From a virus (lineage: Duplodnaviria; Heunggongvirae; Uroviricota; Caudoviricetes): a DNA stretch of 54,213 nt. A program made the translations under genes and the position numbers. Location of the stretch: IMG/VR virus record IMGVR_UViG_2721755676_000004; one strand, given 5' to 3'. Below, piece after piece: positions 1,239-43,605 of this stretch. The notes below the pieces were generated by a model that made no database searches, was not told where the DNA came from, and was given only the letters and a program-made list of their open reading frames with translations. Positions within the stretch are counted from its first letter, which is position 1; the number at the start of each line of letters is the position of its first letter.

Positions 1239-1814
1239 CTACGGCAGTGCTGGCCATTCAATATCCTGTGAAGTTGACGTATCAACACGGTTCAGCAATA
1301 CCCGATACTTTTTCCATGCTTCCAGCAACGAGATTTCTTCCTCCGTTGCAATTTCCAGATCTGCAGCATCCTGAAGCGGCGCAATATGCTCACTGGCTAC
1401 CTGCATCAGGTTGTTTTTTGTTTCTTCCGCCTCCCGGATCCGGAACAGTTTTTCTGCTTCCGTATCCTTCACCCAGGCTGTGCCGTTCCACTTCTGAAAC
1501 TCCCCTTCCGGCGATAACCAGGTAACATTTTCCGGTAACGGACCGAGTTCAGAAATAAATAACGCGTCGCCGGAAGCCACGTCATAAACCGTTTTACCCC
1601 GATGATCTTCAACGAGATGCCACGATGCCTCATCACTGTTGAAAACAGCCACGAAGCCTGCCGGAATATCTGGCGGTGCAATATCGGTACTGTTTGCTGG
1701 CAGACCTGTATGAGGCGGAATATATGCATCACCTTCACCAATAAATTCATTAGTTCCGGCCAGCAGATTATAAATTGTTATGGTCCGTGGTTGTTCACTC
1801 ATTCTGAATACCAT
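1239..1814 (-). CDS. tfaR: Tail fibre assembly protein Tfa
   Basis: 191 aa; translation resembles lambdoid Tfa proteins; start overlaps stf stop (ATGA); immediately downstream of stf. Confidence 0.85.
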
Positions 1815-4800
1815 TATGCAAGCCTCACAATATAGTTAAATGCGATGTTTTTGACGGTGTTTTCCGCGTTACCAGCAGCGTTAACGGTGATGGTGTGTCC
1901 ATGTGAACCAATCGCAACGGAGTGCGTATGAGCACCAATACCGACAGTATGCGCGTGTGCACCTGCAGATGCTGCTGTGCCGGACAGTGAGTGGCTATGA
2001 TTACCATCTGTACTGGTATTAGCTAACCACCCCGTAGACATACCTACTGAGCCTTGTACACCCCAGGTATTTTGACCTGAGCTTGTATAACCATATTGAT
2101 AAGTATCTTTAAAAACACTGGGGTTAAATCGACGGCCATCTCTATGGCTGTGATTACCAGCTGCATTCGTGCTGCCACTTAAACTATGGGTATGCGCACC
2201 AGTGTTATTCGTGGATTTAGTGCCGTAATCAAACGACGATGTGGTTTTCGTCCCCAAATCCGTACTGGATGCGCTGGCGCTGTGGGTATGCGATTTAATG
2301 CCGTCCTGTTCCTGAGACAATACGGCCCGACCACTGGCAGGTTTGCCCTTAATCGTCCAGCCACGCATATCAGGGATCACGCCTGACGGATAAGCCGCTG
2401 CAAGTTTCGGGTATGCAGATTTGTCAAAAGTCTGCCCCTGCATCAGGGCATAGCCAGACGGAACGGTATCTGATGGCCACGGGATTGGTGCACCGACTGG
2501 ATAAAACTCTGCAGGAGGATGAGCCGAGGTGTAAAGCTGCGCCCACGGCGACCAGTTTGCGTCGGTCGTATCCCGTCGTGAACGAATAAATGCCGGAGCA
2601 TGAGCACCGCTTGTACCACTCCAGCCGATGAGTAACTCACCTTCGCCAACGGCTGTCATCCCTTTCAGGTGAATGATATTTCCATACGCTGTTGGATATC
2701 CGTTGTTATACACCTCGTATAACTCAAGACCTGTTGCCCCCTGCGTATTGTCTGTCAGCGCGGTTACCCGACCTTTTGAAGACAGATTAACTGATGATAC
2801 TGCTGTTCCACCTGACGGTAATGCCCCGATCTCTGATGCCGTTGGCTTATTTCTGGAGTTATAGTCCCTTCGCCAGCCAGGTGAATAATCTGTTCCGTGA
2901 TTAATATAGGTAAACTGGGCGTTAGTTGTTCCGCCACCAGTGGAGGTAGTCGGTGTGGTAATGCGGATCGTCATCGCTGACTTTATCCCCATTACTTCAA
3001 TGACAGCTCCTGCGAGATGAATATTACCGCAGCCAGTATCAGTAATGATTTTATTATTGCCATAAGACCAGGAACCCTTGCACATCCAGTATGGATGGTT
3101 AAATGCTCCCTGAGAATCCAGCCACTCGATAAACTGTGCAGTCGTCCAGTCTCCTGTTGTTGTGCTTACTGACCCACCGAAGGCACGGCTGGCACCAATA
3201 TTTTTCGTAAAGGTGTCTTTGCCAGGGATATCCGCACCGTTCTTATCTTTCTGCAGACGTTTCTCAGCATTGTCATTGGCTGCTTTTACTGCCTTTGGCG
3301 TTGCTGCCAGCGTTTCAGACGTGCTGTTGGTCGCGCTGCTTAGCTGGACTATCCCTTTCTGTGCTGTCGTTGCATCCTGTGCGGTGTATTTCCCGTCAGC
3401 CAGGTCATACGCGGCCTTAACTGCTTTTGGCGTTGCCGCCAGTGACTCGGAAGTGCTGTTGGTCGCACTGCTGAGCTGTACTATCCCCTTTTTCGTCGTG
3501 CTCGCATCCTCAAGCGCCACGGCGGATGCAATATCCTCTGCCCGTTTTGCCGCTGTCTCAGCGCGCGTTGCCGCGGATTCCGCCGTACTTTTGCTCTGTG
3601 CTGCCGCCGTCGCACTGCCAGCTGCCTCTGTCGCCTTCGTGGATGCTGTCGTGGCGCTGCCCTTCGCTGCTGACGCTTGTCTGGTCGCCTCATCTTTTGA
3701 AGCAGACGCAGATGATGCCGATGACGCCGCCGAACTGGCGGACGATGCGGCAGCCGTTTTTGAGGATTCTGCGCTGGTTTCCGACGCTTTCGCGTTCGTC
3801 TCGGATGTCTTCGCTGCGGAAGCAGACCTCGCTGCTGCGCTGGCCTGTTCAGTGGCTTCGCCAGCCTTCGTTGTGGCTGTTGAAGCAGACGATGCGGCAC
3901 TTTCTGCCGATTTTCCGGCGGCGGTGGCACTGGCTGAGGCCTGCCCGGCACTTGTTGACGCGGCACTGGCAGACGACGCAGCCGCTGTTTTTGAGCCTGC
4001 CGCAGCCGAGGCGCTCTGTCCCGCTGCCGTTTCAGAAGACCTGGCGTTTGTCTCAGACGTCTTTGCCGCCTTCGCGGAATTGCCTGCCGCCGTTGCCGAG
4101 GAAGCGGCACTACTGGCGCTTGATGATGCGTTCGTTTCTGATGATTTCGCTGCCTCTTTTGAGGCCGCCGCATCCCGGGCTGAGGTGGCTGCTTCTGACG
4201 CCTTCGTGGTCGCGGCGGATGCAGAAGTGGCTGCTGATTGTTGTGACGCTGCCGCATTCGTTTCTGACGTTTTCGCCGCAGCGGCACTGGTAGCTGCCGC
4301 GCTTTTTGAGGACTCTGCAGCAGCAGCACTTTTCGATGCTTCACTGGCCTTTGTTGATGCCGTTCCTGCGCTGGAAGATGCTGACTGAGCCGACGACGCG
4401 GCCTGTCCGGCTGACGTGCTGGCTGCGCGTGCTGAGCCTGCAGCATCAGTCGCATGGGTTGCCGCCTCACGTGCTGATGTGCCGGCATCGCTGGCTGACT
4501 TCTTCGCGGCTGCCGTGTTCTGTGCCACCGCGGACGCGTTACGCACCACCTCTTCCACCATCAGTTCAAAACGGCGCAGAGCCTCCGGACGGGCATCATC
4601 CTCCGTCATGGCACCGAGAAAATCATTCAGCGTACCGGGTTGAGAATCTTCATACACGGTGATGGTCCCGGCATGTGACGGCGGGAATCCTTCCACCAAC
4701 AGAATAACGCTGTACTGACCGTACTCAACGTCCATGCTGTAACGCCCGGCTTCATCCGGATTTTCTGAGGCCAGCGTGTTTACCACCACCGTGGTACTGT

Positions 4801-4885
4801 TACGTTTTGCTTTCAGCTGGATTGTGCAGTTCTGTACCGGTTTTCCTGTGCCGTCTTTCAGTACACCTGAAATCTTTACTGCCAT
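1814..4885 (-). CDS. stfR: Side tail fibre protein Stf with Ala/Ser-rich repeat region
   Basis: ORF track gives 1814..4891 from a GTG; ATG at 4885 gives N-terminus [12 protein letters not shown] typical of Stf; C-terminal His/Gly/Thr-rich fibre tip; internal tandem repeats. Confidence 0.85.
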
Positions 4886-4894
4886 ATTCACCCC

Positions 4895-4949: not shown

Positions 4950-5549
4950 TCAGAATTTATAACCAACACCCACGATGAACCCGTCAGTGCGCCAGTCACC
5001 ACTGCCGGAGCCTTCATAAGCGACATCAATGGCCACGGATTCGGTCGGGTTAAACTGCACGCCAGCCCCCCACACCAGAGACGTGTTGCTGTGGCGACCG
5101 TCATCACTTCCGGTCAGCACATCGTGCGTTTTCCCCTTATTGTCAGTTACGCGGATATAATCCCCGGAAAAAGTCGACACACGGCTGTAAGCCACACCCG
5201 CCATCGCATACGCGCTGAACCATTCATTCACGCGTACAGACGGCCCCGCCATCACGCTGAACCAGCGGTTACGCACGGAATCTTCATACCAGCGGGTATC
5301 GCTGTAACGGGTCAGCTGGCGATTCTTGTCTCCTGCATAGCTGAACGACGTCACCATCCCCAGTGTGTCCGTAAACTCATAACGGTATTTCACGTTAATC
5401 CCGTTCAGATCATCACTGCCGGGAACGTTCGTCCGGGCATGAAGATACCCCGCGCTCAGCGTGGACTGATGTTCAGATGCCCATGCAGGCGCACCGGATA
5501 CGGCCAGACAAATGGCTGCGGAAAAAATGGCGGCATAAAGTTTACGCAT
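4950..5549 (-). CDS. lom: Outer membrane beta-barrel protein Lom (Ail/Lom family)
   Basis: 199 aa; signal peptide; alternating amphipathic strands; C-terminal aromatic residue (GYKF); position between J and stf as in lambda. Confidence 0.85.
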   Translation of the reverse strand: MRKLYAAIFSAAICLAVSGAPAWASEHQSTLSAGYLHARTNVPGSDDLNGINVKYRYEFTDTLGMVTSFSYAGDKNRQLTRYSDTRWYEDSVRNRWFSVMAGPSVRVNEWFSAYAMAGVAYSRVSTFSGDYIRVTDNKGKTHDVLTGSDDGRHSNTSLVWGAGVQFNPTESVAIDVAYEGSGSGDWRTDGFIVGVGYKF

Positions 5550-5618: not shown

Positions 5619-8600
5619 TCAACGAATACTGATGCCGGAAGCGGCTTTTTTGGTCACAATCACCGTACAGTCGGTGATATTGCCTGCCCCCTGATTGCCT
5701 TTCTGGAAAATCTTAAACTCCAGAGTGACGCTACCACCACCACTAGGCATATCAATAACTGCACTGTAACTACCGGGAATGGCCCCTTTAGTTTCTCTGG
5801 ATGCGATTAATACGCCGTTTTTGCGAACTTCAAAACCATAACCCGTGTATCGCGTGCCTCCTGGGTTATTTCCGCTCCCCGGATCGTCATACGCTATACC
5901 GTTAAAAATAATGGGCGGAATAATAATCTGGCGGTCAAAGTTATGATCATCGCTGATGGTGACTGTAACCGTACCGTTTGGTGTTTCCGTGTTACCCCAC
6001 GTACCGACTTTTTTCGGGAAGGCTTTTGATACAGCTTTAACGAAATCCCCTCTGACCTGGGTCGCCTCCAGCATGCCCTTAATCGTACAGTTCTGGTTAA
6101 TCGTGACATTGTTGAGCGTTCCTGAGTTCGCATTCACACTACCACTGATATCCGCATTTTTAGCGGTCAGCTTTCCGTCTGATGTCAGGGAAAATACCGG
6201 AGGACTGCCACCGCTGGTAATGGTGGGGGCTGTCAGGCGCTTCAGGAACACGTCGTTCATGAATATCTGGTTGCCCTGCGCCACAAACATCGGCGTTTCA
6301 TTCCCGTTTGCCGGGTCAATAAACGCGATACGGTTAGCGGCAACCAGAAACTGGCTCAGCTTGCCTTCCTCCGTGTCCTCCATGCTGAGGCCAATACCCG
6401 CGACATAATGTTTGCCGTCTTTGGTCTGCTCAATTTTGACGCCCCACATGGCATTCCATTTATCGTTAGCGTCCTTCCACTCTTTCGAAAACTCATCCAG
6501 TCTGCTGGCGTTATCCTCCGTCAGATCAACTTTTTCCAGCAGCTCTTTACCGAGATGGGATTCGGTTATCTTGCCTTTGAAAAAATCCAGGTAACCTTCC
6601 GCATCATCGCTCGCCCGACCGACAGCCTCCACGAATGCCGATGTGCCAACGGTGTTCACACTGCGAACGTAAAAATAATAATCATGGCCCGGTTTGATAT
6701 TGATACTGGCGGCTATCCAGTACAGCGCCGTACCAAGATAGCGGGCTGTGGTTTCAACCTGCCTGATATCGGTAATCCGCTTTTCCGAGAACCAGAACTC
6801 AAACTGTACCGTCGGGTCATAAACAGCAAGATGCGGCGTGGCGGTTATCTGAAAATAGCCCGGCGTCAGCTCAATCCTCGACGGTGCTGCCGGTGCGGCA
6901 ATCCGGAACGATACCGACGCCGGATCACCCTGCTGCCCCCGGGCATTTACCGCCCGGACTGTCAGCCTGTAGTTCCCCAGCGCCAGTTGCGTGAAGCGGT
7001 ATGTGGTTTCCGTCGTCCGGGCCGTGCTGACCAGCCGCTCACTGCCGTCGTCCGCTGTTACGGTCAGACGGAGCAGGAAGCTCACGCCCTTCACCACCTT
7101 CGGTGTGTCCCATCGCGCCAGCACCTGGTATTCCCCACTGTCTGCGGTGACTTCTGCGGTCAGGTGCTGCACCGCTGGCGGCGTGACACCATTCACCGTG
7201 CCGCTCTGGTCGCCGTCAAAGTGCGCCCCGTTATCCACGATGGCTTCTTTTTCCGGTACATGCTGCACGGCGGTGATGGCATACGTGCCGTCGTCGTTCT
7301 CACGGATACTCACGCAGCGGAACAGGCGCTGGCGCAGCGTCGGCAGCTTCAGCCCCCACACGCTGTATTCAGCAACGCCGTCAGGAACACGGCTCACTTT
7401 CACCTTCACGCCGTCGGTGACGGACTGAACCTCCACGCTGACCGGATTGCCACTTCCGTCAACCAGGCTTATCAGCGTGGTACCGGAGGATGGCAGCGTG
7501 ATTTCACGGTCGAGCGTCAGCGTCCGGGTCTGGCTGTTTACCGCCAGCACGCGCCCGCCGGTGCTGATACCGGCATAGTCATCATCACAGATTTCAATGA
7601 CATCGCCCGGCACATGGCGAAGCCCTTCGGCACCCACGCTGAAGTCCACGGTCTGCGTTTCCAGCAGTTCTGTTTTAATCAGCCACAGCCCGGCTCGGTG
7701 CGCCTGCCCCCGACTGGTACAGCCAAACGCATCCATCTTCGTGACGTTACGACCGTAACGGGCAATGGCCTGCGAGTCCTCCACAAGCTCTGTTGCCGTC
7801 TCCCAGCCGTTATCCGGGTCAATCCAGTTCACCTCAACGGCATTATGGCGGTCTTTCAGGGCGCTGAAGCTGTAGCGGAACGGCGCGCCATCATCCGGCA
7901 TCACCACATTACTGCGGTTATAGGTCCACACCTTATCCGACGGTCGGTCCTGCACGAACATCAGCGTCTGCCCGTTCCATACCGGCATACAGCGCATCGC
8001 CGAGCAGAAATCACTGAGCACATCCCACGCCTTGCGCTGTGTGGTCAGGTACGCATTACAGGTGATGCGCGGCTCCGTGCCGCCAAAACCGTCCGGCACC
8101 GACTGATCGCAATGCTGGCCGATGACATACAGCGCCCATTTGTCCACATCCGCCGCACCAAGACGTTTCCCCATGCCGTAGCGCGGATGGGTCAGCATAT
8201 CCCACAGACACCAGGCCATGTTGTTGCTGTATGCTGGCTTAAACGTTCCGTCCCAGATACCGCTGTATTGCCGCGTCTGCGGGTTATAGTTCGACGGCAC
8301 CTGCAGAATGCGCCCGCGCAGATGATAATTACGGCTCACCTGCTGGCTGCCGAACTGCTCCGAATCCACCTGCACGCCGACCAGTGCCGTGTTCGGGTAG
8401 CACTGTTTCACATCGATGATTTCGGTGTATGACGACCAGAGCGTTTTGTTCTGCAGCTGGTCTGTGGTGCTGTCCGGCGTCATCCTGCGCATCCGGATAT
8501 TGAACGGGCGCGGCGGCAGGTTACCCACCACCACCGATGCCAGATACTGTGAGGTGGTTTTGCCTTTAATGGTGATGTCTTTTTCCGTCACCCAGCCACC

Positions 8601-9032
8601 GTTACGCTGTATCTGAACCAGCAGGCGGACTTCCGACGGATTCCGGTCCCCCTTTGAGGTGGTTTCCACCAGTGCCTGCACACCGAAGGTAAAGCGCAGA
8701 CGGTCGATGTTTGCCGACGTGATGGTCCGGGTAATCGGCGTGTCGTACTTCACTTCCGTACCCAGCACCGTCTCGGAGCCGGAGGATTCAAATCCCTCCG
8801 GCGGTGTCTGCTCCTGCTCACCTGCCCGGAAAACCACCGTGACACCGGAGATATTGGTATTCCCCTCACTGTCCAGCACCGGCGTACTGTTCAGCAGCAC
8901 ACTTTTTAATCCGTCCACCGGACCTTCAACCGGCCCTTCACTGATGGCGTCTATCACGCTCAGCATCTGGGATGATTTCAGGTTGTCCTTCGCTTCGCGC
9001 GGGGTATGCCCCTTACTGCTGCCTTTACCCAT
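5619..9032 (-). CDS. J: Tail tip / host specificity protein J
   Basis: 1137 aa; N-terminus [20 protein letters not shown] and most of the length match lambda gpJ as I remember it; C-terminal ~150 aa diverge. Confidence 0.9.
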
Positions 9033-27425: not shown

Positions 27426-28901
27426 TTAGGAGCGCCAAAAAAAACCTGAAAACAATATAATAACAGGATAAATTTCAAGGCGACCAAGAATCATAGCTAT
27501 GCACATTAAACATTTTGCAATGTCATTAAGCACTCCGAATGACGATGCAGTAGCCCCAAAACCTAATCCCATATTATTAATACATGCAGCCACTGTTGCA
27601 AATGATGTAAGAAAATCATATCCCATACCATTTAACACCAGTATAAAAAACACCGTGAAGAGAGTATAAAGAAAAAAGAAACTCCATACAGACCTCATTA
27701 CACGATCTGTAACTATCTTCCCTCCTACATTTACACTCAACAACGCTCTGGGATGAGAAAGCTGATTTATCTCGTGTTTGCTTTGTTTGAAAAGTATAAG
27801 AAATCGAAGTGACTTAATTCCACCACAAGTTGAACCTATACATCCCCCAAAGAAACTTGACAACAGCAAAAACACTATCGTGTGCGTGGGCCAACTTGCA
27901 TAATCCTGCGTAGCTAAACCATTATCAGTGAGCATGGAGCTGGCAAGAAAAAACGAATGAATAAAACTTCCATGCAAGTCATACATACCTATATGCCAGA
28001 CCTGGAAAGAGGTAACAATGATCACCCCTAAGGCTATTAACAGAAAGAAACGAAGTTCAATATCTCTGATTAAAGGTTTTATCGTTTTCCTGCTAATAAC
28101 AATATACCAAAGAGTGAAGTTGAAAGCCGATAGCAGGGAAAAAGAACCAGCCACCAGCTCAACCAAATAGTTATTAAAATATCCGATACTCTCGCTATGA
28201 GTTGAGAAACCACCAAGCGAAACTGTGGAAATCCCGTGACAAATAGCATCAAACAAAGGCATTCCTGCAAGTCTATAACAGACAATACAAGCAATACCTA
28301 ATAAAGAATAAGTTATCCACAGTGTCCGTGACGTATCGGCCAGGCGGGGAGTGAGTTTGTCATCCTTAAATGGCCCCGGCATTTCTGACTGATAAAGCTT
28401 TGCACCACCAATACCCAATAATGGCAATACAGCAACCGCCAGAACAATAACTCCTAAACCACCTATAAAATTTAACTGTGACCGATAGTACAAATATGCC
28501 CGAGGTAATGAACTAACATCATCAATTACAGTTGCTCCTGTTGTTGTTATTCCAGAAACCCCTTCAAACAGAGCATCAATGAACGTTAAATTAAGTTCTG
28601 AGTCAATCCATAAAGGGAATGCACTAATAACAGAAAACAAAATCCAAAACATTACAATTATAATAAACCCATCACGGGTACGTAATTGAATGCCAGATTT
28701 CTTAGTTGTATACCACGCTCCGCCACCAATGCAAAAAAATATAACGAAAGTTATAAAGAAAACGAACAGGCTTTTTTCTTTATAAAACAATGCTACAACC
28801 ATTGGTGGCAACATTGAAAGACTATAGAGCCAAACCAGGAACCCACACATATGAGTAACAACTCTTACATGAGATGTATTCATATCTAAATATTCTTTCA
28901 A
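27426..28901 (-). CDS. trkG: Trk-system potassium uptake protein (TrkH/TrkG family)
   Basis: 491 aa polytopic membrane protein with repeated GG-containing pore-loop motifs; visibly AT-rich relative to flanks. Confidence 0.85.
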   Translation of the reverse strand: MKEYLDMNTSHVRVVTHMCGFLVWLYSLSMLPPMVVALFYKEKSLFVFFITFVIFFCIGGGAWYTTKKSGIQLRTRDGFIIIVMFWILFSVISAFPLWIDSELNLTFIDALFEGVSGITTTGATVIDDVSSLPRAYLYYRSQLNFIGGLGVIVLAVAVLPLLGIGGAKLYQSEMPGPFKDDKLTPRLADTSRTLWITYSLLGIACIVCYRLAGMPLFDAICHGISTVSLGGFSTHSESIGYFNNYLVELVAGSFSLLSAFNFTLWYIVISRKTIKPLIRDIELRFFLLIALGVIIVTSFQVWHIGMYDLHGSFIHSFFLASSMLTDNGLATQDYASWPTHTIVFLLLSSFFGGCIGSTCGGIKSLRFLILFKQSKHEINQLSHPRALLSVNVGGKIVTDRVMRSVWSFFFLYTLFTVFFILVLNGMGYDFLTSFATVAACINNMGLGFGATASSFGVLNDIAKCLMCIAMILGRLEIYPVIILFSGFFWRS

Positions 28902-29020: not shown

Positions 29021-29485
29021 TTACTTTAAACACTGCTCGGTTATGTATTGCTGAGCACCTTCAAGTTGGGCCTGCATCATTACCAGTCGTTCCCGGAGGG
29101 TGAAATAATCCCGTTCAGCGGTGTCTGCCAGTCGGGGGGAGGCTGCATTATCCACGCCGGAGGCGGTGGTGGCTTCACGCACTGACTGACAGACTGCTTT
29201 GATGTGCAACCGACGACGACCAGCGGCAACATCATCACGCAGAACATCATTTTCAGCTTTCGCATCAGCTAACTCCTTCGTGTATTTTGCATCGAGCGCA
29301 GCAACATCACGCTGACGCATCTGCATGTCAGTAATTGCCGCGTTCGCCAGCTTCAGTTCTCTGGCATTTTTGTCGCGCTGTTCTTTGTAGGCGATGGCGT
29401 TATCACGGTAATGATTAACACCCCATGACAGGCAGACGACGATGCAGATAACCAGAGCGGAGATAATCGCGGTTACTCTGTTCAT
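29021..29485 (-). CDS. Rz i-spanin
   Basis: N-terminal TM then coiled coil; start [12 protein letters not shown] at 29485 overlaps endolysin stop (ATGA); resembles lambda Rz. Confidence 0.8.
29080..29265 (-). CDS. Rz1 o-spanin lipoprotein embedded in Rz (+1 frame)
   Basis: 61 aa; lipobox LVVVGC; proline-rich (PPPPPAW); fully nested in Rz. Confidence 0.75.
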
Positions 29486-29711
29486 TGCTGACCCCACAAA
29501 CAGATTTCACGCTCAATCTCACGACGAGTCATGAGACCTTTCCATTGCTTACCGCCAGCATATGTCCAGCGACGTAGCTGATCACATGCGCCTTTGATAT
29601 CGCCCTGGTTTATTTTGCGAAGAAGCGTCGATGTTCTGAAATTGCCAGCACCCACGTTGTAAACGAATGAGTAAAGAGCGCCGCGCGTTGTTTCCGGTAT
29701 ATCGACTTTGA
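29482..29711 (-). pseudogene. SAR endolysin, C-terminal fragment (IS2-disrupted)
   Basis: Encodes ...[23 protein letters not shown]...CLWGQQ; reading frame runs into the IS2 left end. Confidence 0.85.
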
Positions 29712-29802
29712 TAGACTGGCCCCCTGAATCTCCAGACAACCAGTATCACTTATTTAAGTGATAGTCTTAATACTAGTTTTTAGACTAGTCATTGGAGAGC
29801 AG

Positions 29803-30168
29803 ATGATTGATGTCTTAGGACCGGAGAAACGCAGACGGCGTACCACACAGGAAAAGATCGCAATTGTTCAGCAGAGCTTTGAACCGGGGATGACGGTCTC
29901 CCTCGTTGCCCGGCAACATGGTGTAGCAGCCAGCCAGTTATTTCTCTGGCGTAAGCAATACCAGGAAGGAAGTCTTACTGCTGTCGCCGCCGGAGAACAG
30001 GTTGTTCCTGCCTCTGAACTTGCTGCCGCCATGAAGCAGATTAAAGAACTCCAGCGCCTGCTCGGCAAGAAAACGATGGAAAATGAACTCCTCAAAGAAG
30101 CCGTTGAATATGGACGGGCAAAAAAGTGGATAGCGCACGCGCCCTTATTGCCCGGGGATGGGGAGTAA
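29803..30168 (+). CDS. insC: IS2 transposase OrfA (InsC)
   Basis: 121 aa from [13 protein letters not shown]; HTH; A AAA AAG slippery site at 30120..30126 near its end. Confidence 0.85.
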
Positions 30169-31031
30169 GCTTAGTCAGCCGTTGTCTCCGGGTGTCGCGT
30201 GCGCAGTTGCACGTCATTCTCAGACGAACCGATGACTGGATGGATGGCCGCCGCAGTCGTCACACTGATGATACGGATGTGCTTCTCCGTATACACCATG
30301 TTATCGGAGAGCTGCCCACGTATGGTTATCGTCGGGTATGGGCGCTGCTTCGCAGACAGGCAGAACTTGATGGTATGCCTGCGATCAATGCCAAACGTGT
30401 TTACCGGATCATGCGCCAGAATGCGCTGTTGCTTGAGCGAAAACCTGCTGTACCGCCATCGAAACGGGCACATACAGGCAGAGTGGCTGTGAAAGAAAGT
30501 AATCAGCGATGGTGCTCTGACGGGTTCGAGTTCCGCTGTGATAACGGAGAAAAACTGCGAGTCACGTTCGCGCTGGACTGCTGTGACCGTGAGGCACTGC
30601 ACTGGGCGGTCACTACGGGCGGCTTCAACAGTGAAACAGTACAGGACGTCATGCTGGGAGCGGTGGAACGCCGCTTCGGCAACGAGCTTCCGGCGTCTCC
30701 AGTAGAGTGGCTGACGGATAATGGTTCATGCTACCGGGCTAATGAAACACGGCAGTTTGCCCGGATGTTGGGGCTTGAACCGAAGAGCACGGCGGTGCGG
30801 AGTCCGGAGAGTAACGGCATAGCAGAGAGCTTCGTGAAAACGATAAAGCGTGACTACATCAGTGTCATGCCCAAACCAGACGGGTTAACGGCAGCAAAGA
30901 ACCTTGCAGAGGCGTTCGAGCATTATAACGAATGGCATCCGCATAGTGCACTGGGTTATCGCTCGCCACGGGAATATCTACGGCAGCAAGCCAGTAATGG
31001 GTTAAGTGATAACAGGTGTCTGGAAATATAG
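30126..31031 (+). CDS. insD: IS2 transposase OrfB (InsD), DDE catalytic domain
   Basis: 301 aa in the -1 frame relative to insC; rve/DDE-type integrase core. Confidence 0.85.
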
Positions 31032-31042
31032 GGGCAAATCCA

Positions 31043-31315
31043 TTTGATGTACGGGTTAATTTGTCTGGCGACCGTGGCAAGGTCTTTATTCAAGAGTGTT
31101 TTGCATTCTGCTTTGGTATACGTTTTACCGAGCATGATGTCTTTTCCTGTATGCCCGTGACATACAGTCCATACACCAACAATATCTTTGTATGGTATGT
31201 AGCTGACACCTTCCAGACCATCGTTACCACTTGGGCCAGTGATTAACACTGATGCTATAGCAATTGCTCCGCCACCAATAGCAGCAGCAACGACTTTTCG
31301 TAATGATGGAGGCAT
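31043..31315 (-). pseudogene. SAR endolysin, N-terminal fragment (IS2-disrupted)
   Basis: [27 protein letters not shown]... signal-anchor-release domain as in phage 21 R; frame continues into IS2 right end after INPYIK. Confidence 0.85.
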
Positions 31316-31530
31316 TATTCACCTCTCGCAGCCTTGCGCTTATCTTCTTTAATCTTGAAATAAAGGTTTGTCAGGTACGTCAGCAGGCCAAATACCAGAC
31401 TACCCAGCACACCGATTGCAGCCCACTGTGACGGAGTTACTCTATCGAGCAACTGTAAAAACCAGTAGCCAGCACTGCCTGCGGAGGTGCCGTAGGCAAT
31501 GCCTGTTGAAATTTTGTCCATGGATTTCAT
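31315..31530 (-). CDS. Pinholin (phage 21 S-like), dual-start motif
   Basis: Starts [10 protein letters not shown] (two Met codons three codons apart); two TM helices; AGGTGAGG SD upstream; ATGA overlap with endolysin start. Confidence 0.8.
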
Positions 31531-31781
31531 AGCCTCACCTCCGCACGGAACGGATGGCATAGTTATTATGTGTAGGCTTTCAGACACATCAATCAGAGCC
31601 TTAATTGATATATATGCTGGAGACGATGCAATATAAAAAGCTCGCCGTAGCGAGCTAATAAAATGTATTTCTCTGATATTATGTTTATTTGTATTAGCTC
31701 AGACTTGACATCACAGGTTTCGTATATAGAACATCATCAAATCTGTCAGTTTGCTATGAATGAGATATAGTAATTGAAGAG

Positions 31782-35596: not shown

Positions 35597-36042
35597 AGTA
35601 GCCACATGATAAGTTGCTGGAATCATATTTCCCACTCAAGTCATTAACATTTGATAAGATATATCTAAAAGGACGCCTTTACATTATTTATGTGTATATA
35701 ATTTATTTATATACACAGTAAAGGTATCCTGGGAAAATACTTATCGTTAAAAAATACATCATAAATAATCAAGCTGAAATTTCAGAACACAACTAATACA
35801 CACAATAAGGTTCAGTAACAATAATCTATGTGGACTACATCGAGATTTTTTGATTAAACTTTAATAACTTATTCCTAACACACAGAATGCATAAACTAAA
35901 AGTAAAACAAATAGTTATACGAAAAACAACCATATTTATTATATCTTCTCCTCTAATCAACATATCAATTATGTGTTTCATAACAGCTTGACATAACCCT
36001 CAAAAACACGCATTTATAATGCATGTTTTTGAGGAGGTGGTT

Positions 36043-36381
36043 ATGACACACAAGAGAATTCCTAAAGATTGGGTAATCAAACGCTCAACTCCGTTCTTCA
36101 CAAAAGAGAACGTACCTTCAGCGTTATTAACACATCATAATACAGCAGCAGGTGTTTTTGGGCAGTTGTGCGTAATGGAAGGCACTGTAACATATTATGG
36201 TTTTACTGATGAGAATGCTACTGAACCGGAGATAAAAGTAGTCATTAATGCTGGCGCTTTTGCAACAAGCCCACCACAATACTGGCACCGTGTTGAACTA
36301 AGCGATGATGCTCAGTTTAATATTAACTTTTGGGTCGCTCCAGACTTCTCGGGCGAAAAAGTCTATAGCACCAAAAAATAG
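36043..36381 (+). CDS. YeaR-like DUF1971 protein
   Basis: GAGGAGG SD before ATG at 36043; RSTPFF...VMEGTVTYYGFTDE...AGAFATSPPQYWH...FNINFWVAP resembles E. coli YeaR. Confidence 0.7.
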   Translation: MTHKRIPKDWVIKRSTPFFTKENVPSALLTHHNTAAGVFGQLCVMEGTVTYYGFTDENATEPEIKVVINAGAFATSPPQYWHRVELSDDAQFNINFWVAPDFSGEKVYSTKK

Positions 36382-37104
36382 ATGATCATATTAAAAATGC
36401 TTTAACAGTCAGACCCGGCAGGGCTATCCCCGACGGGTCTCATTTTTGTAAATATATTGGTTCTACATTGACAGGAGACTTCAACCATAAGAAGTAATCT
36501 GAATACTTGAGCAATAAATTTACTTAAGATTAATGAGCGCACCTTGCCGGACAAAGATAAACCAAGGTAACACCTTTTTTCTAGCCAGTATGTAATCAAT
36601 CAGAAAGCCGCTCCATAAGAACAACAGCAAGACAATAAATTGCCATTACAGCCGCAATAGCTAGCGCACATTTGAGAACCAGCACGACAACCTCCTGTAT
36701 TGGACGTACACCAGTTCTGATAAATATGAGGCTGTCTCATCATTGATTCAATATAACTATTGGGTATAGTTTCTGTGATTTTGTTCTGTAGAAATGGAAC
36801 ACAACAACCAGTCACCACCAGCACTTCTTTAAATACGCCAAGTCCGACGCAAGCTAACCTTCTAGTCCGCTTTGAGCGAGGAGCGGACCAAACCCGGCCA
36901 ACTGACTCTTAAAGGGGCCGCAGGAATTTTTCGTCTGAACTTTCGAAGCTCCTCTCCCTGAAGACAGAAAACTTCTGTGTGCTGTGGGAATATTGAATCT
37001 TTGCCTTAGATATAAATAATTTTATCCCGCCTGAAGTTTACATTATTTTATTTATCTGTTTTTCTAAATCAGACTGCACTCCTTACTTAAATCAGGAGCC
37101 AGTC

Positions 37105-38304
37105 ATGCCATTTGTTATTTATGTGTTTACTATCAGTGCCTTTGCGCTCGGACTCGCGGAATTTGTCCCCATTGGGCTGACAGACGTTATGGCTCAGGGG
37201 TTGTGTGTGGGTGTGGAGCAGACCGGGGCAGCGGTTACAACCTATGCACTGGGGGCAACGTTCGCGGCACCCGTACTGTCTGCGCTGACAGCAAGCTGGA
37301 GCCGGAAAAATGTAATGCTTACAACTGCCGTTGTGTTTACTGCCGGTAGTCTGGCGGCCGCGTTTGCAGCCACATTACCTCAGCTCCTGTTAGCGCGGTT
37401 CATTGCTGGTCTGGGACACGGCCTGTTTCTGGCTGCGGCATCCAGTACCGCAGCTCGTCTTGCTGGACCGGGTAAAGCAGGCAGAGCGGTGGCTGTGGTA
37501 TTTGGTGGCTTTACTCTGGCGATGGCAATCGGCGTACCGCTGAGTACATGGTTGGGGGGGGTGGTCTCATGGCGTCCAGTTCTCGGCGCTATTGCCGCTT
37601 TTGGCGCGTTCGGATTCCTTGGACTGTTGTTCGGTATGAAAGATCCCGTACGCAGCGTGCCCGGTGAACATAGTGACTCAGCAATGCAGAATATCGGCAT
37701 GCTGTTTAACCGTAAGTTGCTGGCCGGCGCGCTGGTTACGGTGCTGGCGTATGCAGGCTCGTTTACGGCTTACACCTTTATCGCACCTATTCTGACGCAG
37801 GTGACAGGGGTTACCGGAGCAACGGTGAGTCTGTTTATGCTGGTTTACGGTATTACAGCTGCGGTAGGTAATATTCTTGGTGGGAAACTTACCGACAGCA
37901 TGGGGGTTAATCGTGCCAATATACTCATCATTAGCGGCATTGTTGTTGTCGTGCTTGGTATGTGGCTGCTGTCATCCTCACCGGTGAGCATGGGCATTCT
38001 GGTTGCGCTGCTGGGTATGGTGACATTTGCCGCAGTGCCGGCACTGCAGGCCCGTCTGATTGGTGTCGCTGAGCAACATGCTCCTCATGCGCATGGTGTT
38101 GCTGCCGGCCTGAATATTGCGGGCTTCAACTCAGGTATAGCGCTGGGATCAGTACTGGGCAGCATTACTATAAGCCACGCCGGTATCGTGTATACCGGTA
38201 TCAGCGGTGCGATTGTTTCTCTGCTCGGCCTGCTGTTGCTGCTTGCACAAATCCGTCGCAGCCACAGTCGTAAATTTCAACAGGTTAAAATCGTAGGCCA
38301 GTAA
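37105..38304 (+). CDS. MFS transporter (12 TM)
   Basis: 399-aa polytopic hydrophobic protein with MFS-like loop motifs. Confidence 0.85.
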   Translation: MPFVIYVFTISAFALGLAEFVPIGLTDVMAQGLCVGVEQTGAAVTTYALGATFAAPVLSALTASWSRKNVMLTTAVVFTAGSLAAAFAATLPQLLLARFIAGLGHGLFLAAASSTAARLAGPGKAGRAVAVVFGGFTLAMAIGVPLSTWLGGVVSWRPVLGAIAAFGAFGFLGLLFGMKDPVRSVPGEHSDSAMQNIGMLFNRKLLAGALVTVLAYAGSFTAYTFIAPILTQVTGVTGATVSLFMLVYGITAAVGNILGGKLTDSMGVNRANILIISGIVVVVLGMWLLSSSPVSMGILVALLGMVTFAAVPALQARLIGVAEQHAPHAHGVAAGLNIAGFNSGIALGSVLGSITISHAGIVYTGISGAIVSLLGLLLLLAQIRRSHSRKFQQVKIVGQ

Positions 38305-38315
38305 AGGGAGGTTAT

Positions 38316-39008
38316 ATGCTTACCCGTGAAAATATGCTTAATGGCACATTTGTCAGGGTGCATGAAGCGCTGCTCCCGGCGAATATGCTCTGGGACGCTG
38401 AAAAAATACGCGCATCAATGAACTCTACTCTGGAGGAGCGCCCGACGGGTGCTCCTGTCTGGATATTTGCCTACGGGTCATTGATGTGGAATCCCGTGCT
38501 GGCGATTGAAGAAATGCAACGGGCCCGTCTGAAAGGATGGCAGCGCAGTTTCTGCATTCGTTTGATATCCGGACGAGCGACTCCTGATGTCCCCGGCAGG
38601 ATGTTATCGCTCGACGAAGGTGGAATTACCGAAGGTATTGCGTTCAGACTGCCGGAATCGACTCTTATTAATGAGCTGGAAATTGTCTGGACGCGCGAGA
38701 TGATAACCGGTCTTTACCGTCCGGTCTGGGCAGACGTTTCGCTAGGAAACGGTGAGGAAATTCAGGCGCTGGCTTTCGTATCAGACAGACTGCATCCGCA
38801 TTATGAACAGGACAATCTTACAGCGACCGTAGCGTTGAGCATCGCATCTGCCCGTGGAGACATTGGCACGAATGCAGATTATGTATGGAAACTGCAGGCC
38901 ACTCTGGGTGCGTTGGGAATACGGAATGATTACGTGAGTGAACTGGCCCTTGCTCTGCATGAGGCTCCCTGTAACGATAAACTTCATCAGCGAGGCGCTT
39001 CACTATGA
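38316..39008 (+). CDS. ChaC-family gamma-glutamylcyclotransferase-like protein
   Basis: 230 aa; VWIFAYGSLMWNP motif and overall similarity to E. coli ChaC. Confidence 0.75.
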   Translation: MLTRENMLNGTFVRVHEALLPANMLWDAEKIRASMNSTLEERPTGAPVWIFAYGSLMWNPVLAIEEMQRARLKGWQRSFCIRLISGRATPDVPGRMLSLDEGGITEGIAFRLPESTLINELEIVWTREMITGLYRPVWADVSLGNGEEIQALAFVSDRLHPHYEQDNLTATVALSIASARGDIGTNADYVWKLQATLGALGIRNDYVSELALALHEAPCNDKLHQRGASL

Positions 39009-39886
39009 GCCATCTGAGCCATCTGCGAACGTTTCTTGAGGCCTATCGCTCTGGCTCCTTTTCAAAGGCGGCAGAACTACTGGGCATCACTCAGCCCGCG
39101 GCGTCACAGCATATCCAGTCTCTTGAGACTCTGGTTGGTAAGCGTCTGTTTATCAGGCAGGCCAGAGGCGTGACGGCAACCGAAGCTGCGGATGAGCTTG
39201 CCCGCTCAGTTTCACCCTTCATTGATGGTCTGGAAGAAAAGCTGTCCTCTTTCCGGTCAGGCTCTGTACGCGGGGGAACAATTAATCTGGCAGGACCGCC
39301 AGATTTTATTCATTCCCGGCTTGGGACAGTAATGGCTCCACTAATGAAGGAGGGGTATCGCCTACGCTTTCATACCGGCAATAAGCAACGTATTTATTCC
39401 CTTTTGCATGACGGGAGCGCCGATCTCGCTGTTACCGCATCTATGCCTGATGACCGTCTGTACGGCTATGCACATCTACTGACTGAACGCATGCTCCTTG
39501 TTCATGCTCCCGCCATGTCAGAGATCATCGGATCAGAACCTGGTGCTGAAACGCTTGCCTCATTACCGCTGATTGCTTATGACGAAGAGTTGCCACTGAT
39601 TAGAGCGCTCTGGGCCTCCATGTTTCAGAGAGCCCCTGAGATGCAGGCTACATTCACCATTCCGGATTTACGTATTATCCGCGACTTGGTCTGTGACGGC
39701 CACGGGTGGACAGTGCTGCCGGATTATCACTGTGACAATGACCTGAAAAGTGGTCGCCTGATTTCAGTGACACCTGCAGACCTCGCTCCGACTAATCATC
39801 TTTATCTGGTCTGGAACAAAAGGACGGCTAATAACAGCCGAACCGCCTATGTTCGGGATTACATTCTTAAAACGTTTCCGCGTTGA
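39005..39886 (+). CDS. LysR-family transcriptional regulator
   Basis: 293 aa; N-terminal HTH (FSKAAELLGITQPAASQHIQSLE) plus LysR substrate-binding domain; overlaps ChaC-like stop. Confidence 0.85.
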   Translation: MSHLSHLRTFLEAYRSGSFSKAAELLGITQPAASQHIQSLETLVGKRLFIRQARGVTATEAADELARSVSPFIDGLEEKLSSFRSGSVRGGTINLAGPPDFIHSRLGTVMAPLMKEGYRLRFHTGNKQRIYSLLHDGSADLAVTASMPDDRLYGYAHLLTERMLLVHAPAMSEIIGSEPGAETLASLPLIAYDEELPLIRALWASMFQRAPEMQATFTIPDLRIIRDLVCDGHGWTVLPDYHCDNDLKSGRLISVTPADLAPTNHLYLVWNKRTANNSRTAYVRDYILKTFPR

Positions 39887-39932
39887 TGTTTGAAACGGAT
39901 GATTGGCGATGCGTATCATAAGTTACGTATGT

Positions 39933-39960
39933 CCGCTTCTGGCACAAAGCAGACGCCCAC
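39933..39960. repeat. 28-bp repeat copy A (TTGGCACAAAGCNGAC..CCAC core)
   Basis: Near-identical to 43606..43633, direct orientation. Confidence 0.5.
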
Positions 39961-40016
39961 TCTCACGCGAATGCTTTGCCCTTGACTTGCCAACAACCGT
40001 ATCGCTTGCTCCGCAA

Positions 40017-41309
40017 CTATGGTTTTTTATTAGAATCTTCGCCACTAAATAAATTATAATAAATTGATTTTATTAGATATCTATCAGAATCTATATGGTC
40101 AGCACGAGTAGCATGCTCTAATGTTTCAAATGCTAGGGTTTGTGCGGCTTCAGCAAAAATTCCAGGCCAACCCTTACTCAGCATCGACAGTCCTTTAAGT
40201 ACCCTTATCTGAATTTCCCTCATACTGGCACCATCGCGCGCAACAGGTGAGAAAAAGTCTTCAAGTAGATCGTTATTCTGAAGTGGTGCAACATGTACAG
40301 AAGGATATTTCACTTCTATTTCATCAGATTTATTCTGCGCGTAAGCGGAAAGTATACGTACACCTCTGCCAATGACATCAATGGCGGTTCCAGGATCGTT
40401 CACTGCGGGGGAAAGGGCTCGGCAGGCTATTTCGGCCATGACGCTAAGACAAAATCGGGGGTCCTGAGCAAATGAACGTACATCCGAGACAATAATCGTC
40501 TCAAGTAAATCGGTGCTGATTGATGACTCCTGGCCCTGACTCAGGTACAAAACTGGCGTGGACGGATGTATGAAACTGCCCGGCTGCGCCACGAGGTATA
40601 CATGACGGGGATCATTGGTCAGCAGCTTGCTGAGTTTCACCATATCAACATATTCAACATAGCCAATCTTTTTCGGATAAACTGCAACCGTTCCTTTCGG
40701 CTGTTCATTGTTCTCAAGCCATGGATATCCGCCGAGACAGGGATTTCTTGCTCTCGCAATAAATGTTTCGATGGCCGCCTGTTCTACTTTTGCCGTTGTC
40801 TCACCAACCCTCCCCAGAGAGGTCAAATGCTGTATCCAGCGAAGCAATGTGATGAGGATTAAGGCAATGACAACCAGTGTTACAATGAATAAAATGACTC
40901 TCCCCCTTTCTCCATAAGCTCCCATATTGAGGGCAATAATCCCTACCAGACTGAAGAGAAAAGAACCGATGAAGGTGGCCAGTACATTTTGTGTGGTGAC
41001 GTCTTCAACAACTAAACGAGTAGCTCTGGGAGTCACATTAGTAGTGGCTGAACCGTAGGCTGTGACCATGATGCTCAGCGAAAATGTGGTCACGGCCAGC
41101 ATACTCGATGCCAGTATGTTCAGAATGTTATCGACTGCTTCCGCACCAACCTTCACGGAAACCGACTCAGGTATCATTGATTTAAAAAGAATTGATAAAA
41201 GGGCCGTTATTATTGCGACAATTGCGAATAACGTTGCCCTGAACCATAGTTTTTTAAATGTCTGCTTCAGCATCCATTTCCAGCGTGAAATCATTCTGCA
41301 TTCTCTCAT
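40017..41309 (-). CDS. Integral membrane protein with C-terminal soluble domain
   Basis: 430 aa; several N-terminal TM helices; start may be internal. Confidence 0.6.
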   Translation of the reverse strand: MRECRMISRWKWMLKQTFKKLWFRATLFAIVAIITALLSILFKSMIPESVSVKVGAEAVDNILNILASSMLAVTTFSLSIMVTAYGSATTNVTPRATRLVVEDVTTQNVLATFIGSFLFSLVGIIALNMGAYGERGRVILFIVTLVVIALILITLLRWIQHLTSLGRVGETTAKVEQAAIETFIARARNPCLGGYPWLENNEQPKGTVAVYPKKIGYVEYVDMVKLSKLLTNDPRHVYLVAQPGSFIHPSTPVLYLSQGQESSISTDLLETIIVSDVRSFAQDPRFCLSVMAEIACRALSPAVNDPGTAIDVIGRGVRILSAYAQNKSDEIEVKYPSVHVAPLQNNDLLEDFFSPVARDGASMREIQIRVLKGLSMLSKGWPGIFAEAAQTLAFETLEHATRADHIDSDRYLIKSIYYNLFSGEDSNKKP

Positions 41310-41357
41310 ATTGCAGCCGGGATAAATAAATGCCGCCTCTGTGGCGGCATGTTGCTG

Positions 41358-43361
41358 TTAACGAACCAGATGCAGGAAGTGCAGGTGTTTTTCGTACTGG
41401 TCCAGTATGTCATTAATCAGCTGTTCCTGATTCCAGCCCATTACATCATAATTTTGGCCGCCCTCTTTGAGATAGACTTCAGCGCGATAATATCGATGTT
41501 GTTCACTCTGCTGCTCATCATTATCCAGCGCAGCGAGCGCGAAGGTCGGTGAGTTATACCCGCGAAGCCTCACTTCATATATATAATTCAGCTCGTTGCC
41601 CAAATCGACTTCAAGGCGAATACGATCCTCGGCGGCGTCACTGATGTGGCTTATCGTTCCCTGCTTGTTAAGTTCCTCCTGAACCAGCGTCATGGCGGGT
41701 TGGATAATGTCGTCCATAAAACGTTTCACAAGAGAGCGCTTCGGCAAATACGCGATATTGCGTAACCTTCTCTGCCAGGGAATTGGGTTACGTGCAGCCG
41801 TAGGAGCAATAGTCGCCATGCTAAGGCTTTCACGCTTGGTCAAATCCCGACGCAGGGCTTTTAACAGTCCGTATATGGATATTAATAAGATAACTGAGAA
41901 GGGCAATGCACTCGCTATCGTTACGGTTTGCAACGCACTCAGCCCCCCTGCGATCAGCAGGGCAATAGCAACAACGCCCATGAGCGATGCCCAGAAAATT
42001 CGCTGCCAGACGGGCGTGTTTGCCACCCCACCTGATGCCAGAGTATCCACAACCATTGCCCCCGAATCAGCAGACGTTACAAAGAAGACGATGACCATCG
42101 CCATTGCAATGAATGACAGCACGGAAGAGAACGGGAAATGCTCCAGGAAATTAAACAGGGCAAGCGCAACATCCTGCTGAACGGTATTGGCGAGGTCAGT
42201 GGCGCCCTGGTTCATGATGAGATAGATGGCGCTGTTTCCAAACACCGTCATCCACATGAGCGTAAAGCCGGCGGGAACAAACAACACGCCAGTCACGAAC
42301 TCACGAATTGTCCTGCCGCGGGAAACGCGTGCAATGAACATACCTACAAACGGCGACCATGAAAGCCACCATCCCCAGTATAATAATGTCCAGCCCCCCA
42401 GCCAGTTGCTCGACTTGGGTTCATACGCGTAAAGGTTGAACGTTTTACTCACCAGTTCCGACAGATAACCACCCGTATTTTCCACAAATGACTTCAGCAG
42501 AAGCACAGTGGGACCCAGGCACAAGACCAGCGCCAGGAGCAACACTGCCAGGCCCAGATTAAGCTCAGACAGGATGCGTATTCCCTTGTCCAGGCCGGAC
42601 ACCACCGAAATCGTCGCTAACCCCGTGATGACCACGATCAAAATGACCTGTACCGTTTCATTGATGGGCACGCCGAAAAGATGGTTCAAACCGGCATTCA
42701 CCTGCAATACACCGTAACCCAGCGATGTTGCAACGCCAAAGACAGTGCCTATCACGGCGAAGATATCAACCGCGTGGCCTATAGGCCCGTAAATGCGATC
42801 GCCGATAATGGGATAGAGCGCAGAACGCAGCGTTAAAGGCAGACCGTGACGGTAACTGAAAAAGGCCAGAATCAGCGCCACGATGGCATAAATTGCCCAT
42901 GCGTGCAGACCCCAGTGGAAGAACGTCAGGCGCATGGCTTCCTTCGCTGCCGCAACGGTCTCTGGAGTGCCGACAGGTGGCGAAAGATAATGCATCACAG
43001 GTTCGGCAACGCCAAAGAACATCAGGCCGATCCCCATCCCTGCCGAAAAAAGCATCGCGAACCAGGAGTGGTAGCTGAAATCAGGCTGCGCATGGTCTGG
43101 GCCCAGCTTTATATCACCGTAACGTGAGAGTCCAAGGAACGTGACGCTCAGTAAAATCAGGGCCACAGCAAGTATGTAGAACCAGCTGGCATTCGTGAAG
43201 ATTTGTTGCTGAAGTAGTTTAAAATTTTTGTCGGCGACATCCGGGAATACGGCGGCAAAGGCGACAAGAAGGAAAATTAGCAAAGCAGATGTAAAGAATA
43301 CCGCTTTGTTAATCTGGCTTGTAGACTTCTTTGGGGTTGTATCATTTTCACTCATAATCAT
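41358..43361 (-). CDS. BCCT-family transporter (BetT/CaiT-like)
   Basis: 667 aa; strong resemblance to E. coli BetT including WTLFYW/WWxAWSPFVG-type motifs and long cytoplasmic C-tail. Confidence 0.85.
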   Translation of the reverse strand: MIMSENDTTPKKSTSQINKAVFFTSALLIFLLVAFAAVFPDVADKNFKLLQQQIFTNASWFYILAVALILLSVTFLGLSRYGDIKLGPDHAQPDFSYHSWFAMLFSAGMGIGLMFFGVAEPVMHYLSPPVGTPETVAAAKEAMRLTFFHWGLHAWAIYAIVALILAFFSYRHGLPLTLRSALYPIIGDRIYGPIGHAVDIFAVIGTVFGVATSLGYGVLQVNAGLNHLFGVPINETVQVILIVVITGLATISVVSGLDKGIRILSELNLGLAVLLLALVLCLGPTVLLLKSFVENTGGYLSELVSKTFNLYAYEPKSSNWLGGWTLLYWGWWLSWSPFVGMFIARVSRGRTIREFVTGVLFVPAGFTLMWMTVFGNSAIYLIMNQGATDLANTVQQDVALALFNFLEHFPFSSVLSFIAMAMVIVFFVTSADSGAMVVDTLASGGVANTPVWQRIFWASLMGVVAIALLIAGGLSALQTVTIASALPFSVILLISIYGLLKALRRDLTKRESLSMATIAPTAARNPIPWQRRLRNIAYLPKRSLVKRFMDDIIQPAMTLVQEELNKQGTISHISDAAEDRIRLEVDLGNELNYIYEVRLRGYNSPTFALAALDNDEQQSEQHRYYRAEVYLKEGGQNYDVMGWNQEQLINDILDQYEKHLHFLHLVR

Positions 43362-43605
43362 TTATTCCATTAATTAAATCCGCACTGGATAGAAGGTACT
43401 ACCTCTCACAGAGTAGCAAAGTTCAACTGGCTATGCGGGGTTAATCGGAATGCATGGTGGAATGAGTGCCGATACAAATCATCCTATATTCTAAGGAGTT
43501 TTAAGTTACTCAGCCTGCCAATTACTGGGGCATTTAATTTGTATGATCTGTATCAAAGCTGGGATATAAGTTAAGTGAAGTATATTAGGCACGAATTACC
43601 AGCGT

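Follow-up and report, generated by a model that had tools for sequence, protein, structure and literature searches.

In phage lambda, residues 960–1132 of the tail tip attachment protein J (gpJ) form a "specificity region" that behaves in evolution and recombination as a module of its own, separate from the remainder of the protein (Maddamsetti et al. 2018, PMC6646904). Lineage-defining indels in this region fall at residues 1012, 1048–1049, 1077–1078 and 1107, and residues 1012 and 1107 are the two needed for the laboratory shift from LamB to OmpF (PMC6646904). In structures of the lambda protein, three Ig-like domains at the tip push four distal loops into the LamB trimer, whereupon their base spreads and a twist up the central straight fibre opens the tail tip (PMC11101478). 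Phage 434 has been reported to use OmpC, and lambda with the 434 tail-fibre gene binds OmpC, not LamB (PMC11101478, PMC3509688). Lambda has also been retargeted from LamB to OmpC by swapping gpJ ends at lambda residue 964, in a background with a replaced side tail fibre gene, stf (Brodel et al. 2024, PMC11338833). Here we analyse the J gene of a lambdoid prophage held in IMG/VR as virus record IMGVR_UViG_2721755676_000004; the whole stretch of 54,213 nucleotides (nt) is called the window. An initial annotation, made from the sequence alone, had singled out the end of this J as divergent from lambda. We conclude that its last ~170 residues represent the "h434" allele, that of phage 434, of this exchangeable module, and that OmpC is the most likely receptor.

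J departs from lambda at its C-terminal end

The gene and the parts of it discussed below are, with lengths in amino acids (aa):

5619..9032, minus strand: complete J gene (tip attachment/central tail fibre protein), 1137 aa plus stop, ATG start, intact open reading frame (ORF), from the ORF list and translation
6123..9032, minus strand: conserved structural part of J, residues 1–970 (hub domains, FNIII/Ig domains, helical shaft, central straight fibre), ~97% aa identity to lambda J and 434 J
5619..6122, minus strand: J specificity region or receptor-binding module, phage 434 type by identity to lambda versus 434, residues 971–1137 plus stop
5625..6032, minus strand: Ig-like receptor-binding domain (RBD) proper, J residues 1001–1136, from Pfam PF12421, an AlphaFold2 model and Foldseek
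5676..5711, minus strand: variable distal loop region, J residues 1108–1119, site of three of the four substitutions relative to 434 within the RBD (I1108V, Q1110H and G1115R)
5976..5978, minus strand: codon 1019, the fourth RBD difference from 434; Asn in prophage J, Asp in 434 and Ser in lambda

Six Pfam families are found in the protein in the order expected of J (FNIII-A_GpJ, Phage-tail_3, Ig_J, Ig_J_second, Phage_Tail_Tip and Ig_GpJ_C), all of them above their curated Pfam cut-offs. The domain architecture, the position of the gene and the identity of the body to lambda all agree with lambda-like gpJ, and prophage J is a full-length lambda-family J protein. At the nucleotide level, the full-length gene is 96–97% identical to the J genes of PhiR29_1, Perceval, mEp460_ev081 and 434.

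We aligned prophage J with the J proteins of lambda (NC_001416, 1132 aa) and phage 434 (OL657226 CPT_434_21, 1137 aa). Over alignment columns 1–950, 924 of the 950 residues are identical to lambda (97%), in agreement with the initial annotation, which had described J as close to lambda gpJ from its N-terminus. Identity then falls to 76%, 42%, 28% and 30% in the last four alignment blocks (86/193 together), a contrast between body and end that is far beyond chance. Differences are scattered from residue 943 and dense from residue 974. The nucleotide comparison places the change similarly: identity to lambda is 90–99% per 100 nt until J nt ~2900, then 68%, then 41–57%, with the drop starting at J nt ~2911 (window ~6122). 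The breakpoint thus lies essentially at the engineering junction of the gpJ chimeras, residue 964. The interval given earlier for the divergent end, 5619–6100, is correct to within about 20 nt; the gene being on the minus strand, it corresponds to the last ~160 codons, and the landmark chosen there for the start of the divergence, residues ~975–992, falls within the transition zone.

A BLASTP comparison of residues 971–1137 alone with lambda J returned 67 identical residues of 172 (39%; E 2e-35). A lambda-type LamB-binding allele would show high identity over lambda residues 960–1132, including S1012, D1107 and their flanks; neither of the checks proposed in the initial annotation, alignment with lambda J and BLAST of the C-terminal part alone, revealed such identity. 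The claim that the end does not resemble lambda stands as far as this low identity goes, but is overstated in that the end is a clear homologue with the same Pfam domain. Relative to lambda, prophage J carries two additional residues immediately before S1012, six near 1043, one after Q1078 and two after 1099, and lacks six at 1109–1114; all of these indels lie at or beside the four reported hotspots. Lambda S1012 aligns with an Asn that the two-residue insertion directly precedes, and lambda D1107 aligns with N1118, flanked by a two-residue insertion and the six-residue deletion. Base composition changes within the gene as well. The module has a guanine-plus-cytosine (GC) content of 0.478 and a third-codon-position GC content (GC3) of 0.497, compared with 0.578 and 0.697 elsewhere in J, a shift consistent with the module having its own history.

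The divergent end matches phage 434

Compared with phage 434 J, residues 971–1137 are identical at 163 of 167 positions without a gap. The two whole proteins differ at 22 residues, and the four that lie in the last 167 are, from prophage J to 434, N1019D, I1108V, Q1110H and G1115R. Over the last 482 nt of J, identity is 100% to mEp460_ev081, 99.8% to several Stx2-converting phages, 98.8% to phage 434 and 98.5% to the laboratory hybrid lambda h434 imm21.

The match to 434 is not confined to J. A contiguous alignment of 96.4% nt identity runs from window 9100 to 4536, beginning upstream of J, passing through lom and taking in the first ~118 codons of stf. The gene downstream of J is accordingly of 434 type:

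4950..5549, minus strand: lom (Ail/Lom outer-membrane protein), 434 type, 199 aa, Pfam Ail_Lom 392 bits, co-inherited with the J end

BLASTN detected no similarity to lambda between window 6065 and 5029, a span that covers the J receptor-binding domain and most of lom, and Lom is 45% aa identical to lambda Lom. The block unlike lambda therefore consists of the J end and most of lom, as it does in 434. Near-identity over the specificity region, the same indels relative to lambda and linkage to a 434-type lom are together the marks of the 434 (h434) allele. The J end is an already known one, the classical h434 host-range allele, and a very common one.

The divergence had been read initially as a domain swap. 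A C-terminal module has indeed been exchanged, as the 434 J end shows, but the exchange is a homologous replacement within one family that keeps PF12421 and the fold and introduces no foreign domain. Non-homologous domain replacement was rejected, since the end retains the Pfam domain, aligns with lambda as described above and has the same predicted fold.

The sequenced record of the hybrid lambda h434 imm21 carries 434 J, lom, stf, tfa and more together. We considered this hybrid as proof that J alone sets the OmpC host range and rejected it as such, because it also has the 434 stf and tfa genes. The primary reference for OmpC use by phage 434 is Hantke 1978. The records of phage 434 and lambda h434 imm21 also contain genes or gene fragments for NleB-, NleC- and NleH-like type III effectors downstream of stf/tfa, with no counterpart in the window.

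Predicted fold of the receptor-binding domain

Residues 1001–1136 match positions 1–134 of the 135 in the PF12421 (Ig_GpJ_C) profile with 88.3 bits (cut-off 26.2). The closest solved chains by sequence are 9wca/9wcb (A8 gpJ 713; E 1.7e-50), then lambda gpJ in 8xcj, 8xck and 8iyk (E ~1e-41). A protein-database search with the last 167 aa gave mostly partial or fused entries from short contigs and was used just for a small alignment; the input for structure prediction was a 13-sequence alignment, five chimeric or truncated rows having been removed beforehand. The AlphaFold2 model of residues 971–1137, a monomer, is all-beta with a mean predicted local distance difference test (pLDDT) score of 75. 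In the model, residues 1112–1116 form the loop between the last two long strands. Foldseek of the model against the PDB returned four top matches at E ~1e-13, with template modelling (TM) scores of 0.71–0.73, and all following matches had E > 6e-4. The four are:

9wcb: top match, A8 gpJ713 in the open state with OmpC of E. coli EDL933, TM 0.71
8xck: lambda gpJ, closed state
8xcj: lambda gpJ713–LamB complex
9wca: A8 gpJ713, closed state

We predict from these results that the domain adopts the Ig-like beta-sandwich fold of the solved gpJ receptor-binding domains.

The 434-type end is the common form in E. coli

To see how common each J end is, we searched 5426 complete E. coli genomes. The 434-type end, counted in a megablast comparison from 80% coverage upward, occurs in 2112 of them, with up to 7 copies per genome, and 627 matching records are at least 99% nt identical to the prophage J end. 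Lambda's own J end occurs in 98 of the 5426 genomes, in every case at an identity of at least 99%; among the matches listed (eight), the carriers of the lambda type were K-12, B and BL21(DE3)-type laboratory strains. In E. coli genomes, the "divergent" 434-type form is the commonest of the J ends and thereby the norm, and the lambda form is the exception. The lambda J end is thus unsuitable as a reference state for natural E. coli prophages. For annotation, the gain is that the likely receptor of this prophage's virions would be predicted as OmpC rather than LamB.

Neighbouring tail genes and the HepS trigger

Upstream of J, ORFs match Lambda_tail_I and the JAB/NlpC-P60 protein K; downstream, lom is followed by two further tail genes:

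1814..4891, minus strand: side tail fibre (stf), 1025 aa, second host-range determinant, Pfam phage_tail_N, Phage_fiber_2 and Collar
1239..1814, minus strand: tail fibre assembly protein (Tfa), Pfam Caudo_TAP, 94% aa identity to lambda Tfa

A near-identical genome is annotated in the order tape measure, tail protein, L, C40 peptidase, tail assembly protein, gpJ, Lom, tail fibre and tfaR, the last being its name for the Tfa counterpart. The side fibre gene is a mosaic: its N-terminal ~118 codons match 434 stf, identity to lambda Stf (orf-314) is 71% across the C-terminal ~230 aa, and residues ~907–966 form a divergent stretch. Given that Stf of Ur-lambda has been reported to bind OmpC, both host-range determinants of the prophage, J and stf, might target this porin.

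The conserved part of J contains another functional element. A 32-residue stretch of the J central straight fibre has been reported as the trigger of the prophage-encoded abortive-infection nuclease HepS (PMC13043305). Residues 902–933 of J (window 6234–6329), including F924, are identical in lambda, prophage and 434 J, and by this identity prophage J would be expected to activate HepS.

Prophage context and lysis genes

The window (1–54213) comprises a full-length Rac-type lambdoid prophage. At its low end lie ydfK, pinR and tfaR, the tail-fibre genes running directly into pinR and ydfK; at its high end are kilR, racC, recE (48836–51427), recT, ralR, xisR and intR (52978–54213), and trkG (27426–28901) lies inside. 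In strain M8, a near-identical region adjoins ompN, uspF and ydfK-pinR-tfaR, and in a near-identical relative the high-end gene set adjoins ttcA. Natural E. coli isolated from mouse, cat, chicken, wild birds and humans carry near-identical copies of the prophage (99.4–99.8%). Between the regions for late regulation and for replication, window ~36000–43400 is occupied by a cargo block of non-phage genes. The annotation of a near-identical relative lists for this block a DUF1971 protein, an MFS transporter, a gamma-glutamylcyclotransferase, a LysR regulator, a DUF2254 protein and a BCCT/BetT-type choline transporter. The corresponding cargo ORFs in the window are:

36019–36381
37105–38304
38316–39008
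39005–39886
40017–41309
41358–43361

The lysis genes are arranged as follows:

30956–31315, minus strand: endolysin ORF, disrupted, matching positions 3–60 only of the 125-position Phage_lysozyme profile
~29758–31031, plus strand: IS3-family element with ORFs 29758–30168 (HTH_Tnp_1) and 30126–31031 (rve), abutting the endolysin ORF
31315–31587: holin, intact
29021–29497: Rz, intact

The near-identical prophage of strain PKF8 is annotated with an IS3 transposase beside the lysozyme gene and a frameshifted glycoside hydrolase fragment. To judge from these genes, the prophage is probably lysis-defective. The endolysin truncated by IS3 accounts for the qualifier "after repairing lysis" that the initial annotation had attached to its proposed adsorption assays.

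Receptor assignment and alternative explanations

The receptor of prophage J is most likely OmpC and not LamB, as its identity to phage 434 suggests. The initial proposal of a receptor other than LamB gains support from this near-identity to an OmpC-using phage. We infer both OmpC binding and the triggering of ejection because of the identity to 434 and because other J ends of the same fold use OmpC. Homologous recombination between lambdoid prophages would exchange the module at the conserved stretch around residues ~943–975. In the virion, the trimeric central fibre would present three copies of the receptor-binding domain at its tip, and their distal loops would enter the trimeric porin; the base of the domain trimer would spread, a twist would travel up the central fibre, and the tail tip would open for DNA ejection. 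These trigger steps are modelled on the solved lambda–LamB and A8 gpJ–OmpC complexes, and by analogy with lambda and LamB, ejection would be triggered by prophage J itself.

Several points weigh against this assignment. OmpC is carried over to the exact prophage allele from 434, from which it differs at four residues, three of them within or adjoining the loop that aligns with lambda specificity residues 1104–1107 (G1115 aligns with lambda H1104, and N1118 with D1107). Receptor use in lambda and phage 21 changes with just one to four substitutions in the specificity region. The h434 imm21 hybrid alone cannot separate J from the side fibre as the determinant of OmpC use, and the OmpC-binding chimeras A8 and 1A2 have receptor-binding domains of other types. 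The confidence of the structural model is moderate, its pLDDT of 75 applying to a monomer only. Finally, the endolysin gene of the prophage is interrupted, so J may not currently reach infectious particles. Literature searches on the receptors of mEp460 and the ECOR13 PhiR phages, whose alleles are identical or closest, yielded nothing relevant.

How far do these points favour another explanation? Continued use of LamB, as in lambda, is the least credible alternative and highly improbable. The module does share its fold and domain family with the LamB-binding domain, and LamB, OmpC and OmpF are all trimeric porins, several of which J variants can use; yet its identity to lambda is low, its indels fall at or near all four hotspots, including both receptor-choice residues, and the near-identical phage 434 is reported to use OmpC and not LamB. 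It is also quite unlikely that the 434-type end binds some other receptor and that 434 depends on OmpC through its side tail fibre. That the hybrid inherited 434 J, lom, stf and tfa in a single block would allow this, as would the OmpC binding reported for the Ur-lambda side fibre. However, a lambda-like side fibre merely speeds reversible adsorption, and contact between J and the receptor triggers ejection (PMC11101478), so the complete resistance of OmpC-lacking cells points to J. Reviews credit the h434 switch to the J gene (PMC11101478, PMC3509688), and direct binding to OmpC is seen for further natural gpJ ends that share this fold, in particles with a replaced side fibre and for one of them in a solved complex (9wcb). 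We assign OmpC to J rather than to the side fibre because J–receptor contact is essential and because of these analogous chimeras.

A somewhat stronger contender, if still an unlikely one, is a 434-type module with shifted specificity, which would be confined to some natural OmpC variants, or would bind OmpF or another related trimeric porin, in place of the K-12 OmpC that phage 434 uses. The placement of I1108V, Q1110H and G1115R at the specificity loop speaks for it, as does the natural variation among 434-type alleles at position 1115, which is G, R or W. In phage 21, a single J mutation permits OmpC use and further ones OmpF, and gpJ ends can discriminate between OmpC variants, 1A2 using OmpC of EDL933 but not that of MG1655 (K-12) (PMC11338833). 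On the other side, 163 of 167 residues and all indels are common to 434, and the exact allele is very common (the 627 records above), also in phages on K-12 or laboratory hosts at 98.8–100% nt identity. This commonness, including in K-12- and laboratory-propagated phages, fits ordinary polymorphism within one receptor class. In the explanation that we favour, a 434-type end with OmpC as receptor, the four substitutions are ordinary allelic variation, which may tune which OmpC variants are recognised. More speculatively, and we think improbably, the common G1115/Q1110/I1108/N1019 sub-allele and the R and W forms would be functionally distinct, each matched to OmpC surface-loop variants; across E. 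coli lineages, sub-alleles of this one J module would then follow polymorphism in ompC and help to determine between which strains lambdoid or Stx prophages are exchanged. A different objection, which we regard as possible without favouring it, is that the module is functionally silent in this genome: the lysis defect would leave J specificity without a current phenotype, and the intact ORF would reflect a recent insertion. The partial endolysin ORF abutting an IS3-family element agrees with this, as does the same arrangement in the annotation of the PKF8 prophage. Against it, intact ORFs remain for J, lom, stf, tfa and the tail genes upstream, the prophage retains holin and Rz, and tail modules can be rescued into other lambdoid phages by recombination; moreover, such silence concerns expression in this strain and not the identity of the module, which we continue to read as the 434 allele.

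Comparison with known systems

Natural and engineered J ends that use OmpC fall into several sequence types. The J end of phi330 depends on OmpC, and the receptor-binding domains of phi330, lambda and 434 share 35–40% pairwise identity (PMC12502783). The A8 and 1A2 ends use OmpC in particles with a replaced side fibre (PMC11338833). Like the end of prophage J, the ends of 1A2 and phi330 are C-terminal J modules from E. coli prophages or phages, and their need for OmpC was shown genetically; phi330 J is, however, of a distinct sequence type, and the 1A2 C-terminus, ending ...MKKATAGITIS, differs from that of prophage J. Among solved structures, the A8 gpJ chimera (PDB 9wca, 9wcb) gives both the best sequence match and the top fold match. 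Its J end, too, comes from a natural E. coli prophage and was joined to lambda J at residue 964; it uses OmpC but belongs to a separate type of receptor-binding domain, 44% identical over the modelled domain. We therefore rejected identity of the prophage end with either engineered end, A8 because of this divergence and 1A2 because its printed 3′ end encodes another C-terminus. A search of the supplements of Brodel et al. for peptides of the prophage J receptor-binding domain found none. As neither A8 nor 1A2 is of 434 type, the experimental data of that study do not transfer to the prophage allele.

Lambda gpJ (NC_001416; PDB 8iyk, 8xck, 8xcj) and prophage J are alike in domain architecture, in sequence to residue ~950 (~97% identity), in C-terminal Pfam family and in predicted fold, and presumably in the trigger mechanism. 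They are unlike in the last 167 residues, with 39% identity and five indels, and lambda's receptor is LamB. The modularity seen here restates what is textbook knowledge, from the host-range hybrids of the 1970s through the evolutionary analysis of 2018 to the gpJ chimeras with solved complexes of 2024–2026. The closest relative remains phage 434. Its J has the same length of 1137 aa and the same indel pattern relative to lambda, and a 434-type lom follows immediately downstream in both. The two differ in four substitutions in the receptor-binding domain, in the length of stf (437 aa in 434, 1025 aa in the prophage) and in the Rac-type prophage background that carries this widespread J end.

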